Origin: an uncultured Gammaproteobacteria bacterium
GTDB lineage: Bacteria > Pseudomonadota > Gammaproteobacteria > Pseudomonadales > Azotimanducaceae
Assembly: GCA_913030615.1 (NCBI GenBank)
Contig: CAJWCW010000001.1
Span: 1-47,774, forward strand
Reading direction: 5' to 3'
Length of the DNA: 47,774 bases
Shown in pieces: positions 14,294 to 31,329 of this stretch. The position numbers were made by a program, and so were the translations under genes. Numbering within the stretch: the stretch's first letter is position 1; each line of letters begins with the position of its first letter. The notes below the pieces were generated by a model. It did not search any database, was not told the origin of the DNA, and was given only the letters and a program-made list of their open reading frames with translations.

Positions 14294-15517
14294 TCACGCG
14301 TCGTGAGCTCTGCGTTTGGCAGCCCGTTCGAGCTTGAAGGTTTTGAGAGCAAGCCGCGGTAAACCGAGCGGATTCTTAAGGAACTTGCGAAGGATCAATC
14401 GTCGCATGTGGGGGGTACCCGAGAATATGCTTTCTCGCTGGCCGTGGCCGGTATGGATCGCCAAGGTTGGTACGTCAATCACGTCAAGTTTCACGCGCAG
14501 TGAGAGTGTTTCGGTTTTCGGCAGGAGACAGATCGAGTCATCGCACGCCTGATAGCGAAGCACCACATTGATATCTGCTGTGTCCTGATCGAGGGGGCGC
14601 GTTTCACTTGCCAGCGAACCCACCGCGTAAAAGGGGACGACGATGTCGACTTCGCCACTCCATATCCGAAGCTCAATGTTGGTACTTTTCAGAATGAGTG
14701 TCTCTGCGGGTGGGAAAATGGGGTCTTCAAACACTAAACCTGCGGAGCCAGAAATAGTGACCGTGGTGGGGACCATATCGTTGGGTACGGGTTCCCCGTA
14801 GATATGGAGGCCCGAGGGCAATTCGAAGCGAGCAACAAGATGTCTAATGATTCCCTGTCGTATTGTGCCTCGGCCGCCGCGGACAGATATAGAAACTGGG
14901 ATTTCCGGATCCTTATTGCTTACGTTCGGCTCGTCGCCAGTCAGTTGAATCCTGCCCTCTGCCGCGTCGAGTAGGTTTTCGGGGCTGTCCCGCTTTTTGT
15001 AGGTGTCGTGAAAAAACTTTGCGGTGACGACGCCTGATTCGTCAGTAACGTACGCTCCTGGAAATGGAATGCCCTCAAGAAAGGCATCCCCGCGACCGAC
15101 CTGATCGTTGAGGATGCCGTAGCGGCGGATCACTTTAGAGTCGATATCCGAAAGGAGTGGGTACGGGATCTCCTGCTTTTGACTGAACTCGCGGAGTATC
15201 TCTTGGTCGTCGTAGGAGATGGCATAGAGTTTGATGCCCGCCGACTGGAATTTTGGGTATGCGTCGCGAAGCTCGCCGAGCTGCGTCCAGCAAGGCGGTC
15301 ACCAAACGGCCGATCGAAAAAAAACGACGACGGCTTTGCAGTTGGCACGACTCTGGTGGAAATCAATGAGATCACCGTACGCATTGGGCAGTTGGAAATT
15401 TGGGAGCCGCTCGCCAACCTCAGGACCGGTTAAGTGGCCGCGAGGTAGCCCTGCTCGACCGGGATGCCCCAACGGTGCGGGAGCATCGAAACCGTGGTGA
15501 TCGCGTTCTACCGTCAC
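14294..15517 (-). CDS. Predicted selenoprotein: AhpC/TSA-redoxin domain with U-P-P-C motif fused to a DsbD-alpha-like domain (in-frame TGA at 15299-15301)
   Basis: Track ORFs 15299..15517 and 14294..15133 share one frame. Codon-by-codon translation of 15134-15298 shows no other stop. The junction reads VVVFFRSAVW-TGA-PPCWTQLGELRDAYPKFQSAGIKLYAISYDD. The C-terminal half has VVLRYQACDDSICLLP. GTG start 15517 with GGGAG 4 nt upstream. 407 codons, U at residue 73. Confidence 0.75.
15265..15285 (-). promoter_or_regulatory. Candidate bacterial SECIS hairpin for the redoxin UGA
   Basis: The mRNA segment CGCAGCUC-GGC-GAGCU(UC)GCG forms 8 bp with a 2-nt bulge. The G-rich apical loop begins 21 nt after the UGA. 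Folded by eye only. Confidence 0.4.
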
Positions 15518-15671
15518 GTAACTCCCTTTTCTTCTGGTGCGTCAAACGACTGACATATCAAGTCTATCAATGTGTGGACGGGTTGTTGTGCCAGCGGGTC
15601 GTCGAGGCGTACGAGATCGTTGGATAAGGGCGAATCAGCGCAACCGTTACACCCATTTTAAGGGCCATCGA

Positions 15672-17104: not shown

Positions 17105-18484
17105 ATGCCAATTGCGACACACGACAACGGCAGTTTCTGGTTTGATTCGCTTGAATCTTTGCCCGAACCCGAAAAACCATCTTCTTTGCCGAGAGCGACC
17201 GATGTGGCGATTATTGGAGCTGGTTTCACCGGTTTATGGACGGCGTACTACCTAAAGCAACGGCGGCCTGATCTCTCCATCGCTATTTTTGAAGCAGTAA
17301 CCGTTGGATATGGTGCTAGCGGCAGAAATGGTGGGTGGTGTATGGGGCTCGCCATGGGGATTGAAGATCTGTTGGCGAAACCTGAAACGCGGCACGTAGG
17401 GATTCAAGTTCTTCGGGCGATGCACGAAACTGTCGATGAGGTTGGTCGCGTTTGTCAGGCTGAGAACATCGATTGTCACTACCAAAAAGGCGGCACGCTC
17501 ACTGTCGCGACACTGCCTTTTCGTGCGAAACGTATGCGGGATCGGGTCGAACGCTTCCACAGCATGGGTTTCTCCAAAGACGATTACCGCTGGTTGCCCG
17601 CGAGTGAGGCAAAGAGGCACATCAACTGTGCATCAAATTATGGGGCTAGCTATACCCCGCATTGTGCGGCCATACACCCGGCGAGGTTAGTCAAAGGATT
17701 AGCCGAGCGAGTTCGAGAGCTGGGTGTGGCCATTCACGAGTTGACGCCTGTGACCAATTTCGAGCCCGGACGAATTCACACCGAAGTCGGATCAGTCGAC
17801 GCGTCGATCGTACTTCGTGCTACCGAGGGATATACCGATTCGCTAAGCAATCAAAAGCGCCGAGTTATGCCGCTCTATTCGATGATGGTCGCCACCGAAC
17901 CGTTAGAGCGCGGGATGTGGGAGGAAATTGGTTTAACCCAGCGGGAAACCTTCGGCGATGGACGTCGAGTCGTGACATATGGACAGAGGACGCTTGATAA
18001 CCGCATAGCATTTGGAGGTCGAGGCAGTTATTACTTTGGTTCTGAACGTAAACCGAGGATATCGCCCGAGGATCCAATGCTGGACGTCGTGGAGCAGAAC
18101 TTGCGCGATTTCTTTCCGATTCTTCACGATGTCGAAGTTACGCACCGATGGGGCGGATTGATGGGTGTCAGCAGACACTGGCGACCGAGCGTGTTGTTTG
18201 ATCGGCATACCGGACTCGGGAGCGCTGGTGGGTATGTGGGGGAAGGTGTTGCCGCAAGCAATCTGGCGGGTCGGACTCTTTCGGACCTGGTGACCGGAGA
18301 GAATTCGGATCTCGCTCGACTTCCATGGGTGGGTGACGACCCCGATCGTTGGGAACGCGAACCGCTACGCTGGGCCGGAGCCAAGGCGGTCAAGTTTTTC
18401 GGGGACCGCGCGGACCGAAAAGAACGAGATTCCAATGCTCCTTCTAGACTCTGGGGCGGATTATTTGATCGTTTGGTTGGCTAA
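17105..18484 (+). CDS. FAD-dependent oxidoreductase (DAO family, PuuB/OrdL-like)
   Basis: Rossmann motif DVAIIGAGFTGLWTAYYL. 459 aa, a length and layout typical of gamma-glutamylputrescine-oxidase-like enzymes. Confidence 0.85.
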   Translation: MPIATHDNGSFWFDSLESLPEPEKPSSLPRATDVAIIGAGFTGLWTAYYLKQRRPDLSIAIFEAVTVGYGASGRNGGWCMGLAMGIEDLLAKPETRHVGIQVLRAMHETVDEVGRVCQAENIDCHYQKGGTLTVATLPFRAKRMRDRVERFHSMGFSKDDYRWLPASEAKRHINCASNYGASYTPHCAAIHPARLVKGLAERVRELGVAIHELTPVTNFEPGRIHTEVGSVDASIVLRATEGYTDSLSNQKRRVMPLYSMMVATEPLERGMWEEIGLTQRETFGDGRRVVTYGQRTLDNRIAFGGRGSYYFGSERKPRISPEDPMLDVVEQNLRDFFPILHDVEVTHRWGGLMGVSRHWRPSVLFDRHTGLGSAGGYVGEGVAASNLAGRTLSDLVTGENSDLARLPWVGDDPDRWEREPLRWAGAKAVKFFGDRADRKERDSNAPSRLWGGLFDRLVG

Positions 18485-18600
18485 TGTAGGCTCGTCGGAC
18501 GGTCTCCTTATCTCCTTCAAGTAGTTACTCGATATGATGGGGCGAGTTAATCTAAGTCCTTGTTCCCAGCGACCAAAGCCAATTAGACGGAGAGTCATAG

Positions 18601-18996
18601 GTGAAGGTGACACGATTTTTTACGACCGAAGACGGCGGTTCGGCTTTTGATGAGTTGGACATTCCGGTGGTGATAAGTACTACCGATGCTTGGGCGAACG
18701 AGCTCCAATTTAGCGAAGCGTTTGCTTCTCCCAACGTTCGGATCTTTGAAGCTCCAGTGGACGCGTTCCAGGATTGGCATAACGCGCCGACCCGTCAACT
18801 GTGCATCATGCTGGAAGGCATTTGGGAGATCGGAACGACAGACGGGGACAAGCAACGTTGGGGTCCCGGCGAAGTCTTTATGCCTGACACCGTTGCGGGT
18901 CAGGGGCATACAAGTAGGGTCGTGGAGGGGCCGGTGAGGATGGTCTTTGTACCGGTCCCCGCTGAGGTAGACATAGCTTCGTGGCACATGGATTGA
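18601..18996 (+). CDS. Small cupin-like protein
   Basis: 131 aa. GTG start directly after an in-frame TAG. WHNAPTRQLCIMLEGIWEIGTTDGDKQRWGPGEVFMPDTVAGQGHTS resembles a cupin barrel. Confidence 0.55.
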   Translation: MKVTRFFTTEDGGSAFDELDIPVVISTTDAWANELQFSEAFASPNVRIFEAPVDAFQDWHNAPTRQLCIMLEGIWEIGTTDGDKQRWGPGEVFMPDTVAGQGHTSRVVEGPVRMVFVPVPAEVDIASWHMD

Positions 18997-23143: not shown

Positions 23144-24286
23144 TTAACGATCCCCTGGTGCCATGTAGAACCAAATCGGTTGCTTCTCGCCGGCTTCGCG
23201 CATTGCAGATCGAGCTTCCAGCAAGAGCTTTCCACCTTCAGTGCTATCGAAAAACCAGCGGGTCCCTGACCAAGCAGCGGGAATGTGATCGCTAAGTCCT
23301 AAGGCGGCCGTCTCGTAATAACCGCGAATGTCTTGTGCGACGCGGGCAGGGATGCCCGGTATACCGGCTTTTTTCCAGGGGCTCCCGTTCGCGACTTGAA
23401 TTAACGATAGGAGAGCGTCTTCGATGCCGTCAGCGTCAACAACTCGCCCGGTCCCTGAGTGATTACCGAATTGTTTGACGGCTCTTTCGTACGCCGGGCG
23501 GAGGCCACGAGCTTCGTCGATGGCGGGAGGTAAATCAGCAGTACTACGCGGCGGCAACGGACAAGTGAGGAGCTCTGCTTCGTCGGTGACGGCCTCTCCA
23601 AAATCTTCCAAAACCGGGCCTTCAGCTTGCAGTAATCGGAACGCGTGTTCTAGCACTCGATGCTGGAACGCGGGATCGCCGGGTTTTCCTAAGGGTCGAC
23701 CTAGGGGGAAATCGCACCAGAGTCCCCGAGGAGGAGCGGCGCCTTCGAGTTGTTTTCTTATCGAGCCGAGCGCGACGGTTGCAATGCCGTGTGCTTCGAA
23801 GACGTGGGCAAGCGTACTCACGGTACGTGTACACAAGGGTCAGACCGGGGTCAGTAGAACGACGTCGACACCTTGCTTCTTCAATAGAGTGGCACCGGCA
23901 GGGCCACTATCCATTCGGATCGCTGTCAGATCAAACTGATTACCTGCGTACGATAGATGCGAATCGGACACTCGCCCGATGGTTCCTTGAGACGCGAGTT
24001 CGTCGAGCCGATCCAAGGGAATGATGGTGTTGATGTCGCTAGCAAAGCCGACACTGTCGAAATTTGGGCTCCAGTGGCCGGTTTGGTAATCGCGTCTTTT
24101 CCCGTCCAGTACACGGAATCCCGTATCGTTGGGAGCGAAATCGTCTTGGTCTGCGTGATGAAGGGAGGCCGACGTGACGATCGCCACATTGGCTTGGCTT
24201 AAATGGGGTGGCGTCGTGAAAGCGGTCGTGTCGAATATGGGCGCTTCGACATCTTCCGCCATCTCCTTTACCTGCCTGTCTGCCAT
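23144..24286 (-). CDS. Predicted selenoprotein: glycine/sarcosine/betaine/D-proline reductase selenoprotein B (GrdB/PrdB) family-like protein (in-frame TGA at 23840-23842)
   Basis: Track ORFs 23840..24286 and 23144..23836 share one frame and are separated only by TGA + CCC. The junction reads GVDVVLLTPV-TGA-PLCTRTVSTLAHVFEAHGIATVALGS. Upstream, DINTIIPLDRLDELASQGTIGRVS matches my recollection of the GRDB domain. Strong RBS AAGGAGGAAGGAG before ATG 24286. 380 aa, U at residue 149. Confidence 0.72.
23813..23827 (-). promoter_or_regulatory. Candidate SECIS-like hairpin for the GrdB-like UGA
   Basis: The mRNA segment CGUAC-CGUGA-GUACG forms 5 bp with a 5-nt loop containing G. The loop starts 17 nt after the UGA. 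It is a short stem and was folded by eye. Confidence 0.3.
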
Positions 24287-28616: not shown

Positions 28617-30281
28617 ATGCAACGATTAAAAGTGTTTACGGCAGCTCGGATCCGAACGATGGACCCGGGTCGACCGGTGGCCAACGCGGTTGCGGTTGGT
28701 GACGGAAAAATTGTATCGGTAGGGTCACTGGAATCAATGCGGCCGTGGTTGCGAAGGGTCCCCCACGACATTGATGAGACTTTTGCTGACAAAGTAATAC
28801 TGCCCGGGTTTATCGATCCCCATACCCACCTGCGTCTATCTGGGACCTATATGGGGCTGAATTACGTTGGTCCGATCGATTCAACCGACCCAAACGGGAA
28901 ACCCTTGAAGGGTTTGCCAAATCGAGAAGCCGTGCTTTCGCGATTGAATTCGTTAGCCAAAGATCGTACCGAAGCAGTTGTTGCATGGGGTTACGATCCA
29001 GGTATGCAGGACGGTCATTTGGATCGAGACATGCTCGACGAGATCTCCTCGGAGGTCCCGATATGGGTAATTGCGTACGCGCCGCACATTATTTACACCA
29101 ACACGCCGATGATCGAAAGGATAGGTGTTGACGAAAATACTAGGGTGCATGGAGTCGGGCGCTATTCCGACGGAAGGCTAAACGGCTGGTTTGTCGAAAC
29201 TGAGGCGACGGCACTTGCCTCAGGTCCCGTGAAAAAGGAAGTGTTTGGAAAGGGATTTGGCCTGGCGTCGTTAGAACTTCAGGGACGCGTCGCTGTCAAA
29301 AGCGGGGTGACGACGACTGCCGATATGATTTACGGCATTGATTCGTTTGAACGCGAGTGGGAAGACCATGCGGCTGCGATTGAACAAGAGTTGCTACCCC
29401 TACGCGTGATGTTGGTTCCGTTTGAATCTCGATTACGTAAACGGTTCGGGGATGACTTTCTTCGTTTTTATGAATCCATGAAAAACAAGTCCACGGACCG
29501 TCTCGCCATACACGGCGTTAAATTCGTCAATGACGGATCGTATCCGTCGATGACCTTGCGTTTGAATTTCCCTGGATACCTCGACGGCGAGATCGGTCTC
29601 ACCGGTGAAGTACCGTGGGAGGACATGTTCGACCGAATGTTGCCATTCTGGAGTAACGGAATTCAGATCCACTCACATGCCAACGGCGACGAAACCGTCG
29701 ACATGACACTCAACACATTAAATGCGCTACAAAACGCCGCACCTCGATTCGATCATCGTTTCACCGTGGAACACTACTGCATCAGTACCCCCGCCCAAGC
29801 GAGACGACTTGCGGCGTTGGGTGGCCTTGCTAGCGTCAATCCCTATTTTGTGCATTACCGGTCACAAATCCACGCGGACCATGGGTTTGGCCCTGACCGG
29901 ACCGAGACGACAGCGCGGTTAGGGTCTCTGGTTAACGCGGGTGCGACTTTCGCTCTCCATTCCGACTACAACTTGGTGGTCGCGCCGATGCATCCTTTGA
30001 CTGCGGCATGGATTGCCGTGAATCGTATAGCAGCCGACGGGAAAACTGTTGTTGGGCCCGGCGAACGGATCTCGGTTGACCGGGCAATTCGCGCGATCAC
30101 CGTGGACGCAGCATTTGTTCTTAATAGAGACGATAGTTTGGGCAGTATTGAGGTAGGTAAACATGCCGACTTTGCAGTGCTTGATGACGATCCCTACGAG
30201 GTTGAACCCGGAGCCTTGAAGGCCATCGGTATCCATGGGACTGTGCTTGGAGGGAACGTTCATATTGCCGGTACCCCATAA
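28617..30281 (+). CDS. Amidohydrolase-3 (YtcJ-like) metal-dependent hydrolase, copy 1
   Basis: PGFIDPHTHL (HxH), IHSHANGDE, HSDY, GKHADFAVLDDDP. ATG 28617 gives MQRLKVFTAARI. Confidence 0.85.
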   Translation: MQRLKVFTAARIRTMDPGRPVANAVAVGDGKIVSVGSLESMRPWLRRVPHDIDETFADKVILPGFIDPHTHLRLSGTYMGLNYVGPIDSTDPNGKPLKGLPNREAVLSRLNSLAKDRTEAVVAWGYDPGMQDGHLDRDMLDEISSEVPIWVIAYAPHIIYTNTPMIERIGVDENTRVHGVGRYSDGRLNGWFVETEATALASGPVKKEVFGKGFGLASLELQGRVAVKSGVTTTADMIYGIDSFEREWEDHAAAIEQELLPLRVMLVPFESRLRKRFGDDFLRFYESMKNKSTDRLAIHGVKFVNDGSYPSMTLRLNFPGYLDGEIGLTGEVPWEDMFDRMLPFWSNGIQIHSHANGDETVDMTLNTLNALQNAAPRFDHRFTVEHYCISTPAQARRLAALGGLASVNPYFVHYRSQIHADHGFGPDRTETTARLGSLVNAGATFALHSDYNLVVAPMHPLTAAWIAVNRIAADGKTVVGPGERISVDRAIRAITVDAAFVLNRDDSLGSIEVGKHADFAVLDDDPYEVEPGALKAIGIHGTVLGGNVHIAGTP

Positions 30282-30282
30282 G

Positions 30283-31329
30283 ATGCGGTCCCAATCCGAG
30301 CATTTAATGGCAGCATGGGAAACGTTATTGCTTACTCTAGGCGCGCCGCCATCCGAAACACTTCCGGAACGGAACGTCACAAAACGAAATCAGGGGGCGC
30401 GCGGAACAAAAATCCCTGTGACGGTGCTCAGTGGGTTTCTTGGATCCGGGAAAACGACGTTACTTCAGCAATTGCTCCAAAATTCCTCGACCGAAATTGT
30501 TGCTATCGTGAACGATATAGCGTCGATCAATGTCGATGCCGCGCTCATCCGCTCCACGAATGCTGAAACCATTGAGCTCCAAAATGGATGCGTGTGTTGT
30601 GTGCTCGGTTCTGACTTGTTCGACTCGCTCCGGAACATTGGTTTACGATCAAAATGGCCGGACGCAATCGTAATCGAATCTAGCGGTCTCTCAGATCCAA
30701 TGGGCATCGCACAGACCGTGGCCAATGTTGACACTATGTCGCTCGATGGAATAGTTACGGTTGTAGACGCGCTCTCGTTTCGAGAAAGAATCGCTGATCC
30801 GGTCACAGCCATGCTTTTTGAACGCCAGCTTGCGGCTGCTCATCTTATTGTGTTGACCAAGACAGCCACGCGCAAAGATGCTGATCTGCTCATTGAAACG
30901 TTGGCCGAGATGGTTCCAGGACGCCGGGTCATCGTTTCCGATCTTTTGATGGGAAACGATGGCGAATTAGCCAATGACCTTTTGTTAGGGGCTTCAACGC
31001 AGGGCGCTCGACCGCCTCTAGGCGTTAGCACTCACGATTACGATGGATTTTCAGTTGAGACGGTCGATCGCCCCGAGCCGATTCGCGCACGAATTTTTTT
31101 TTCGTTATTGGACCAAATACCGGACTCCGTCTATCGGATGAAAGGTGGAGTCCGTGTCCGAGAGGAGAGTCGAGAGCTTGAACATGTGGAAACGTATTCC
31201 GTGCAAGCTGCCGGAGCCCACTGGCGCGTTGTTCGACAGCCCACGGAGGGGGAGTTGGACCGGCTTATTGTCATTGGACGCAGGAACGATCCCGCGTTGG
31301 AGTCGTTCGTTCTCAAACTTCGCGAATAA
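30283..31329 (+). CDS. COG0523 (CobW/ZigA-type) G3E GTPase metallochaperone, copy 1
   Basis: Walker A GFLGSGKTT and the CxCC motif NGCVCCV. ATG 30283 lies 1 nt after the amidohydrolase TAA. Confidence 0.85.
   Translation: MRSQSEHLMAAWETLLLTLGAPPSETLPERNVTKRNQGARGTKIPVTVLSGFLGSGKTTLLQQLLQNSSTEIVAIVNDIASINVDAALIRSTNAETIELQNGCVCCVLGSDLFDSLRNIGLRSKWPDAIVIESSGLSDPMGIAQTVANVDTMSLDGIVTVVDALSFRERIADPVTAMLFERQLAAAHLIVLTKTATRKDADLLIETLAEMVPGRRVIVSDLLMGNDGELANDLLLGASTQGARPPLGVSTHDYDGFSVETVDRPEPIRARIFFSLLDQIPDSVYRMKGGVRVREESRELEHVETYSVQAAGAHWRVVRQPTEGELDRLIVIGRRNDPALESFVLKLRE

Follow-up and report, generated by a model that had tools for sequence, protein, structure and literature searches.

We describe a gene on the minus strand of contig CAJWCW010000001.1 (assembly GCA_913030615.1, from an uncultured gammaproteobacterium of the Azotimanducaceae), whose 47,774 nucleotides, positions 1 to 47,774, are called the window here. 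The favoured reading, to which we assign a probability of about 85%, is that positions 14294..15517 hold one gene for a 407-residue selenoprotein in which an in-frame UGA is read as selenocysteine (Sec, U) and a redoxin domain is fused to a domain resembling the alpha domain of DsbD, so that the protein carries two redox centres. For one part of this reading, that the product is a selenoprotein, our confidence is very high. Comparison with homologues shows that the gene has a conserved, selected in-frame UGA at the position of a redox cysteine, together with a hairpin maintained by compensatory changes, and we infer actual Sec insertion at UGA 15301..15299.

Translated from 15517 to 14294, the minus strand yields 407 sense codons with TGA 15301..15299 as the sole internal stop, in the context FFRSAVW*PPCWTQLGELR (with the asterisk for the stop; over a longer stretch, ...KAVVVFFRSAVW*PPCWTQLGELRDAYPKF...). 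The two open reading frames (ORFs) that flank it, 15299..15517 (72 amino acids) and 14294..15133 (279 amino acids), are in the same frame, with zero further stops between them. A first-pass annotation had joined these minus-strand ORFs through one in-frame TGA into 407 codons, which translation confirms, and had interpreted the product as a selenoprotein, a view that the conservation of the TGA, its alignment with Cys and the conserved hairpin support. The GTG at 15517..15515 is well supported as the start codon, both by the GGGAG ahead of it and by homologues, whose M-x-[VI]-E-R-D start falls in the same place and is often encoded by ATG. Since the terminal stop is also TGA, one mRNA would have the same codon read in two ways. 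The features of the gene are as follows.

14294..15517, minus strand: complete predicted selenoprotein gene, 407 codons plus terminal TGA, with one internal Sec-TGA
15526..15522, minus strand: Shine-Dalgarno-like GGGAG, 4 nt upstream of the GTG start
15517..15515, minus strand: start codon GTG
15419..15517, minus strand: N-terminal extension, amino acids 1-33, M-x-V-E-R-D-x-x-G-F-D-A-P-A-P-L-G-H-P-G-R, conserved in the window's clade
15020..15418, minus strand: AhpC/TSA redoxin (thioredoxin-fold) domain, amino acids 34-166, Pfam PF00578, spanning the TGA
15301..15299, minus strand: putative Sec codon TGA, residue 73, first position of U-P-P-C
15292..15290, minus strand: codon for Cys76, last residue of U-P-P-C
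15285..15265, minus strand: candidate bacterial selenocysteine insertion sequence (bSECIS) hairpin, from covariation and local fold
14501..14842, minus strand: DsbD-alpha-like immunoglobulin-fold domain, amino acids 226-339, from Pfam PF11412 and Foldseek
14545..14543, minus strand: Cys325, in R-Y-Q-A-C-D-D-x-x-C
14530..14528, minus strand: Cys330, in the same R-Y-Q-A-C-D-D-x-x-C
14433..14456, minus strand: H-x-G-H-G-Q-R-E motif, amino acids 355-362, from conservation
14300..14416, minus strand: basic C-terminal tail, amino acids 368-406, with two helices predicted by AlphaFold2 (AF2) for the window ORF
14296..14294, minus strand: terminal stop TGA, from translation

The internal TGA is almost invariant among related genes. 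Our locus scan took one genome per species and gave 80 loci, from metagenome-assembled genomes (MAGs) and one single-cell genome, labelled as Gammaproteobacteria/Pseudomonadales, Alphaproteobacteria, Myxococcota/Deltaproteobacteria, Actinomycetota, Chloroflexi/Dehalococcoidia and Acidobacteriota. At the column defined by R[ST]xxW-?-PxC, TGA is found in 79 of the 80 genes (the window's gene counted) and TGC in one, L043, which reads W-C-P-Y-C; neither TAA nor TAG occurs (0 of 80 each). With TGA kept in 79/80 genes, an assembly error is ruled out. In most of the related loci the reading frame continues uninterrupted to either side, with TGA as the only stop, and five show frameshifts or truncation. 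Substitutions between the window gene and its two closest relatives, L001 and L002, fall mainly on third codon positions, upstream of the TGA (1/2/11 and 13/5/32 at first, second and third positions, respectively) as well as downstream of it (22/11/59 and 43/23/152). This bias on both sides argues that the two halves are translated in one frame, and the pattern indicates that the frame downstream of the TGA is intact, with purifying selection acting on it.

Relatives that lack the TGA have a redox cysteine at the aligned column. L081, like L043, carries TGC there, and among the 25 full-length forms of alignment A3, 20 read W-C-P-x-C and three W-C-V-x-C. The remoter Cys forms, mainly from Acidobacteriota, have W-C-P-Y-C at this column. 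The proposal that the TGA stands in for the first Cys of a CxxC motif is borne out by its alignment with Cys in L043, L081 and these 20 A3 forms. We note that one JGI protein, P0207 (L082 128..1168), is shown with W-W-P-Y-C; the DNA has TGA at this point, followed by the conserved hairpin. The Trp is an artefact of the annotation, and it could pass for a variant with neither Cys nor Sec.

Public gene predictions systematically cut this gene in two. A protein search returned 745 homologues, and the best 120 of 120 are 277-334 residues long and N-truncated directly after the U position, with starts such as M/L/V-RDAYxKF... and MTQLVELQ.... Homologues that begin just past the U are the expected output of a gene caller that meets an in-frame TGA. 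The first-pass annotation had expected gene calling to split the gene and lose the active site, and these 120 entries are in line with that: because the best homologues are truncated after the Sec codon, the redoxin active site is missing from most public predictions. The missing N-terminal halves can be found as well. When the window's 72-residue N-terminal fragment was searched against 1.84 billion cluster representatives, 139 matches were returned, of which 97 terminate exactly in R[ST]xxW and four more in near-variants, so that some 100 distinct cluster representatives are stranded N-terminal pieces, roughly 40-135 residues long. The sole genuine full-length Cys form among the 139 matches is P0335 (RSAAWCPYC, 341 amino acids). 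About 100 truncated Sec-type clusters against one Cys form indicate that the window's clade uses Sec near-exclusively. The truncated ORFs are named at NCBI and JGI as 'redoxin domain-containing protein', 'hypothetical protein' or 'AhpC/TSA family/Thiol:disulfide interchange protein DsbD, N-terminal', and the affected protein is widespread: it occurs in Proteobacteria and Myxococcota of marine origin, in Actinomycetota and Chloroflexi, and in Acidobacteriota sampled from bog, soil and groundwater. Tandem forms of about 616 amino acids also occur (P0122-P0129; P0125 examined), in which a Sec-type redoxin plus DsbD_N unit, truncated in the database at the TGA, is followed by a second unit. In the second unit of P0125 the redoxin motif has decayed to W-D-F-Y-S and a DsbD_N-like F-Q-A-C-D-E-R-T-C is retained.

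A hairpin follows the TGA within the coding sequence. The structure that the first-pass annotation had drawn, CGCAGCUC-GGC-GAGCU(UC)GCG with its loop 21 nt from the UGA, proved to be exactly the local minimum-energy fold of 15288..15264 (-8.2 kcal/mol), and compensatory changes among homologues agree with it. Its conserved 7-bp helix, in which 15284..15278 pairs with 15274..15268, begins 14-16 nt downstream of the UGA; the apical loop GGC is at 15277..15275, with the loop start 21 nt after the UGA, and the window's form has an upper stem of 5 bp plus a lower stem. The published model of bacterial SECIS elements has an upper stem of 4-16 bp, a loop of 3-9 nt with a G in its first two positions, a UGA-to-loop distance of 16-37 nt and a minimum free energy (MFE) of -7.5 kcal/mol or lower (PMC13188914). 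The window element 15285..15265 falls within all of these limits, and the MFE is at or below -7.5 kcal/mol in 75 of 76 homologues (median -11.5).

Since the window matched zero curated Rfam families at gathering thresholds, the hairpin was tested through comparison of homologues. The covariation set comprised 76 distinct Sec-type sequences, numbered with the T of TGA as column 1, so that columns 18-24 pair with columns 28-34. Over an 8-pair helix (columns 17-24 with 28-35), 87% of cells are paired, compared with 25-40% once the 3' strand is shifted by 1-3 columns. At pair 18-34, 43 sequences have G-C and 27 have C-G, and at pair 21-31 the counts are G-C 59, A-U 13, U-A 1 and G-U 2; the observed covariation was reached by 0 of 500 shuffles. 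Part of the changes are synonymous (CAG/CUG versus CAA/UUG), and others couple a wobble base to the choice of amino acid further on. L028 preserves a pair through two non-synonymous substitutions together, Gln to His (CAU) and Leu to Met (AUG). The same stretch folds at 0.0 and -4.3 kcal/mol in the Cys genes whose DNA was examined (n = 2), and the peptide that the hairpin encodes, Q-L-[VG]-E-L, is present in 70 of 79 Sec forms versus 2 of 22 true Cys forms, in which it drifts to sequences such as QLVDL, ALVQL and QMVDL. These differences indicate that the hairpin is lost or degraded in Cys forms.

Evidence for Sec use also comes from relatives and from a second gene in the window. Two alphaproteobacterial MAGs, L017 and L018, have a tRNA-Sec gene 9.5-10.7 kb from the orthologue, and in L018, the only one of the two with flanking ORFs examined, selD (TIGR00476, 333 bits) and a gene for an AhpD-related (seleno)protein (NF041238, 271 bits) stand beside the tRNA-Sec gene. 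These surroundings look like a small selenium gene neighbourhood.

L017 20705..20798 and L018 19653..19746: tRNA-Sec
L018 20119..21105 and 17933..18736: region of selD and the AhpD-related gene

In the window, a second gene with an in-frame TGA lies at 23144..24286 on the minus strand, where the ORFs 23840..24286 and 23144..23836 are joined through TGA 23842..23840. It reads VDVVLLTPV-U-PLCTRTVS, scores 27.5 bits against Pfam GRDB (cut-off 22), has a 5-bp hairpin downstream with the loop 17 nt after the UGA, and matches the '#Proline reductase' (PrdB-like) selenoproteins of the Global Ocean Sampling (GOS) dataset, in which LLTPVUPLC occurs 18 times. Two predicted Sec genes in 48 kb point to selenocysteine use by the source organism. 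Stop codon usage among the 32 long ORFs of the window is TAG 18, TAA 9 and TGA 5 (this gene included). Because TGA still terminates five of the 32, the code is not globally reassigned, and the internal UGA therefore needs a local signal. We note that TAG, normally the rarest stop codon, is the commonest in the window, which is unusual for a bacterium of 53% GC.

The N-terminal half is predicted to be a redoxin. Written with C for U, residues 34-166 match Pfam AhpC-TSA (PF00578) across the TGA with an E value of 5.4e-30, as expected from the first-pass call of an AhpC/TSA redoxin N-terminus, and Redoxin matches the same stretch; besides AhpC-TSA and DsbD_N, the only further Pfam families are overlapping thioredoxin-fold ones. 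The AF2 two-domain model of a Cys orthologue, P0121, has a predicted local distance difference test score (pLDDT) of 91.5 and a predicted template modelling score (pTM) of 0.86, and a Foldseek search with this model placed Bcp/PrxQ peroxiredoxins and a ResA-like oxidoreductase (4nmu) on top. The peroxiredoxin (Prx) signature P-x3-T-x2-C, however, reads S-A-V-W-U-P-P-C, with Pro replaced by Ser and Thr by Sec. Among the NCBIfam models, the best is BCP (NF006960) at 59 bits versus a cut-off of 140, and PrxQ, AhpC and PrxU are far below theirs. ResA (NF002854) reaches 46 bits versus a cut-off of 170; W-U-P-P-C agrees with this motif type, and the window protein has no export signal. Membership in the canonical peroxiredoxins was rejected, as the catalytic motif is absent and the curated scores are below cut-off. 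Motifs derived from CxxC include TxxC in Prx and WCxxC in TlpA/ResA/CcmG, in which the N-terminal position is the nucleophilic one. By analogy with these, Sec73 would occupy the N-terminal nucleophilic position of W-U-P-P-C, and the predicted function is that of a thiol/selenol-disulfide oxidoreductase, not a canonical peroxiredoxin.

The C-terminal half carries the second predicted redox centre. Residues 226-339 match Pfam DsbD_N (PF11412) at 29.1 bits (cut-off 25), and the AF2 model of the window's own 279-residue C-terminal ORF (pLDDT 87, pTM 0.78) returned, as its top 17 PDB matches in Foldseek, only N-terminal domains of DsbD (E. coli, Neisseria) or ScsB, with E values of 4.5e-6 to 1.4e-4 and target TM scores of 0.55-0.62 for DsbD alpha and 0.40 for the larger ScsB domain. 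Pfam and the fold search thus agree with the DsbD-alpha-like C-terminal module named in the first-pass annotation. The match emerged solely with the C-terminal ORF model; Foldseek with the two-domain P0121 model gave peroxiredoxin-fold matches only. Cys325 and Cys330, spaced as Cx4C, are invariant in every alignment made. Beyond this domain, AF2 places tail helices at residues 240-253 and 257-278 of the 279-residue ORF. The motif H-x-G-H-G-Q-R-E is invariant, the helices are strongly basic and amphipathic, and both are confined to the clade without a signal peptide. Possible roles of the motif and helices include binding of metal, anchoring to a surface and capping of the Cx4C pair, and the basic amphipathic tail may hold the protein at a surface.

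Predicted location differs between clades. No hydrophobic N-terminal or internal segment was found in the window's clade, hence no signal peptide or transmembrane segment, and since it has no signal peptide the product of this clade probably works in the cytoplasm. Clear signal peptides, such as MKLFALAAFASLLVAQ, are present in the Acidobacteriota-type clade (L039-L080, except L065 and L071), which has no basic tail. Because they carry signal peptides, these orthologues are predicted exported selenoproteins, and the acidobacterial relatives would work in the periplasm.

The gene is not without precedent in the literature. The GOS selenoproteome of Zhang & Gladyshev (2008; PMC2398784) contains clear orthologues in its Dataset S1, with U annotated, under '#Prx-like 1'. 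One read, JCVI_READ_1095899084694, begins MVVERDHHGFDAPAPLGHPGR and reads MVVERDHHGFDAPAPLGHPGRASLPEGHSTGPEIGERLPDF...VVVFFRSAVWUPPCWTQLGELRD; JCVI_READ_1947008 is also listed under Prx-like 1; JCVI_READ_1599685 represents the acidobacterial-type form, ...LDYQACDDAICYLP; and a further read has the DsbD-like Y-Q-A-C-D-D-A-I-C (all PMC2398784). With its pfam00578 domain, UxxC motif, marine origin and orthologous reads in the published set, the window gene is, by sequence, a member of the GOS 'Prx-like 1' selenoproteins, a family catalogued since 2008. However, 'Prx-like 1' pools 225 heterogeneous UxxC sequences, with 2,740 Cys homologues reported (PMC2398784), and the paper singles out neither this subfamily nor its DsbD-alpha-like domain nor its near-exclusive use of Sec. 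A 2026 review names 'Prx-like thiol:disulfide oxidoreductase, PF00578, UxxC' among high-confidence predicted families. In the literature searched we found no discussion, for this family, of the DsbD-alpha-like fusion, of near-Sec-only use in the sub-family or of the systematic truncation of the gene in databases.

Like the alpha domains of DsbD and ScsB (PF11412; 1l6p, 1jpe, 3pfu, 1vrs, 1z5y, 1jzd, 6dps, 6c29), which are known partners of thioredoxin-fold CxxC proteins, the C-terminal domain is predicted to be an immunoglobulin-like beta-sandwich with an invariant Cys pair in a Y-Q-x-C...C-x-x-P segment. Unlike them, it is fused downstream of its presumed thioredoxin-fold partner with no DsbD-beta membrane domain, has Cx4C spacing, and shares 13-18% identity with the solved structures; lacking a signal peptide, a transmembrane segment and a C-terminal gamma domain, the window protein is not a DsbD. 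The redoxin half has the same fold as Bcp/PrxQ and TlpA/ResA/CcmG, which are its best structural and profile matches, and shares the W-[C/U]-x-x-C motif type with TlpA/ResA/CcmG. It differs from these groups in that all NCBIfam cut-offs are missed, the Prx P-x3-T is absent, Sec replaces the first Cys, and the protein has an extra DsbD-alpha-like domain and tail. A precedent is found in Caulobacter, in which ScsB passes electrons through TlpA to PprX and also to PrxL (Cho et al. 2012; PMC3322552). There, too, a DsbD-family alpha domain supplies electrons to AhpC/TSA-fold proteins of the envelope, but these are distinct periplasmic proteins that use Cys only and receive electrons from a membrane transporter (PMC3322552), whereas the window protein has both modules in one polypeptide, would be Sec-dependent and is apparently cytoplasmic in this clade.

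If the favoured reading holds, the UGA would be decoded by a SelB-type mechanism with tRNA-Sec, directed by the hairpin inside the coding sequence. Sec73, as an exposed nucleophile, would attack an oxidised substrate (a disulfide, sulfenate or peroxide); a Sec73-Cys76 selenenylsulfide would form next and exchange with the Cys325/Cys330 pair of the fused DsbD-alpha-like domain, and an external reductant would recycle that pair. This intramolecular relay is modelled on the DsbD alpha domain, which exchanges likewise in trans with CcmG, DsbC and DsbD-gamma (the complexes 1z5y, 1jzd and 1vrs are among the fold matches), and as a whole we hold it tentatively, with the odds slightly against it. A bolder version, that the marine clade has an autonomous cytoplasmic two-centre redox machine, a Sec redoxin hard-wired to a DsbD-alpha-like relay outside the DsbD/ScsB membrane system, is speculative and probably wrong as it stands. 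If true, it would be the first DsbD-alpha-like fold working in the cytoplasm, the roughly 100 Sec-type clusters against one Cys form would point to chemistry beyond the reach of cysteine, and the H-x-G-H-G-Q-R-E motif and basic helices might target a particular substrate or surface.

Several observations weigh against the reading of the gene as a Sec-containing redoxin/DsbD-alpha fusion. Within the 47.8-kb window we found no tRNA genes and none of selA, selB, selC or selD; window ORFs of a size to be selA, selB or selD were scanned and proved to be unrelated enzymes. In the window sequence alone, the hairpin is no better than chance (z = -0.2 to -0.9 for 15240..15301 and shorter pieces), it contains one C.U mismatch (CTT for CTG, or equivalently a UC bulge) that is common to L001, L002 and L022, and an alternative fold is slightly more stable in contexts of 47-62 nt. 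A sequence profile searched against the PDB found Bcp-type peroxiredoxins only and did not detect DsbD-alpha, analysis of the 80 neighbourhoods gave no conserved neighbour gene indicating a substrate or reductant, and the literature searched yielded no experiment on any family member. The competing fold was rejected on the 76 homologues, where it pairs 58.6% of cells versus a shuffled mean of 59.4%. Because single-sequence folding fails to single out the hairpin, its support comes from the homologue comparison, and with no conserved partner gene we draw no functional conclusion from operon context.

Two alternatives would deny Sec at this codon. The TGA could be a genuine stop, could stem from a sequencing or assembly error or could mark a pseudogene, with the ORFs as fragments or separate genes, as the two ORFs returned by gene callers and the failure to find sel genes in the window would allow. 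This is extremely improbable given that the TGA recurs in the same column in 79/80 genes from independent assemblies across phyla, that R[ST]xxW is the exact end of about 100 cluster representatives, and that the downstream frame appears intact and under purifying selection. The halves, whose possible separateness the first-pass annotation had flagged for checking, are in no case separate genes; the TGA lies inside the Pfam domain, and most loci keep an open frame on both sides of it. We dismissed assembly error, pseudogene and two separate genes alike on the conserved TGA column, the constrained frame and the domain across the codon. Reading of the UGA as Trp, Cys or Gly, through a reassigned code or near-cognate suppression, would fit the one public gene call that gives W (P0207/L082) and the status of TGA as the least-used stop in the window (5/32 long ORFs). 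We consider it very unlikely, as four long ORFs besides this gene end in TGA, homologues have a redox Cys and not Trp at the aligned position, the compensatorily conserved hairpin accompanies TGA forms only, and tRNA-Sec is linked to the gene in two relatives, with selD in the one checked. The lineages involved are not known for any reassignment of UGA.

Two other alternatives accept Sec and concern its role. The product could be a Sec-dependent peroxidase, similar to glutathione peroxidase (GPx) or Prx, in which Sec73 is peroxidatic, Cys76 resolving, and the DsbD-alpha-like domain only recycles them. GPx likewise has Sec in the first place of a motif derived from CxxC, and the nearest solved structures and NCBIfam models belong to Bcp/PrxQ thiol peroxidases. 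In Caulobacter, ScsB-alpha feeds a periplasmic peroxiredoxin pathway, but PrxL of the same organism, which lacks the conserved Prx residues, showed no detectable peroxidase activity (PMC3322552). With the signature Pro and Thr both lost in S-A-V-W-U-P-P-C and a BCP score of 59 bits against a cut-off of 140, a peroxidase seems unlikely. Electrons could also flow in reverse, in the style of the DsbD gamma-to-alpha step, so that the UxxC domain reduces the alpha-like domain and the latter is the substrate-facing module that reduces other proteins. The domain order, thioredoxin fold then alpha-like, mirrors that step (1vrs, 1z5y and 1jzd are among the matches), and in DsbD and ScsB it is the alpha domain that serves as the client-binding hub. 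However, selenoproteins normally have Sec in the catalytic position that attacks the substrate and not in a relay position, and partner genes are not conserved nearby in the 80 loci; we regard reversed flow as unlikely.

Since the family was already catalogued, the selenoprotein reading leaves knowledge of selenoproteins unchanged, and its value is in the correction of annotation and, modestly, in flagging an unstudied fusion of a Sec redoxin with a DsbD-alpha-like domain. Within the broad 'Prx-like 1', this sub-family is one in which Cys is almost never substituted for Sec and the DsbD-alpha-like partner is built in, which could make it a convenient model for why a UxxC centre needs Sec.

Elsewhere in the window, a CobW/ZigA-like GTPase ORF at 30235..31329 on the plus strand has a sub-threshold score of 46.9 bits (cut-off 180) against the NCBIfam 'CobW-related selenoprotein' model.

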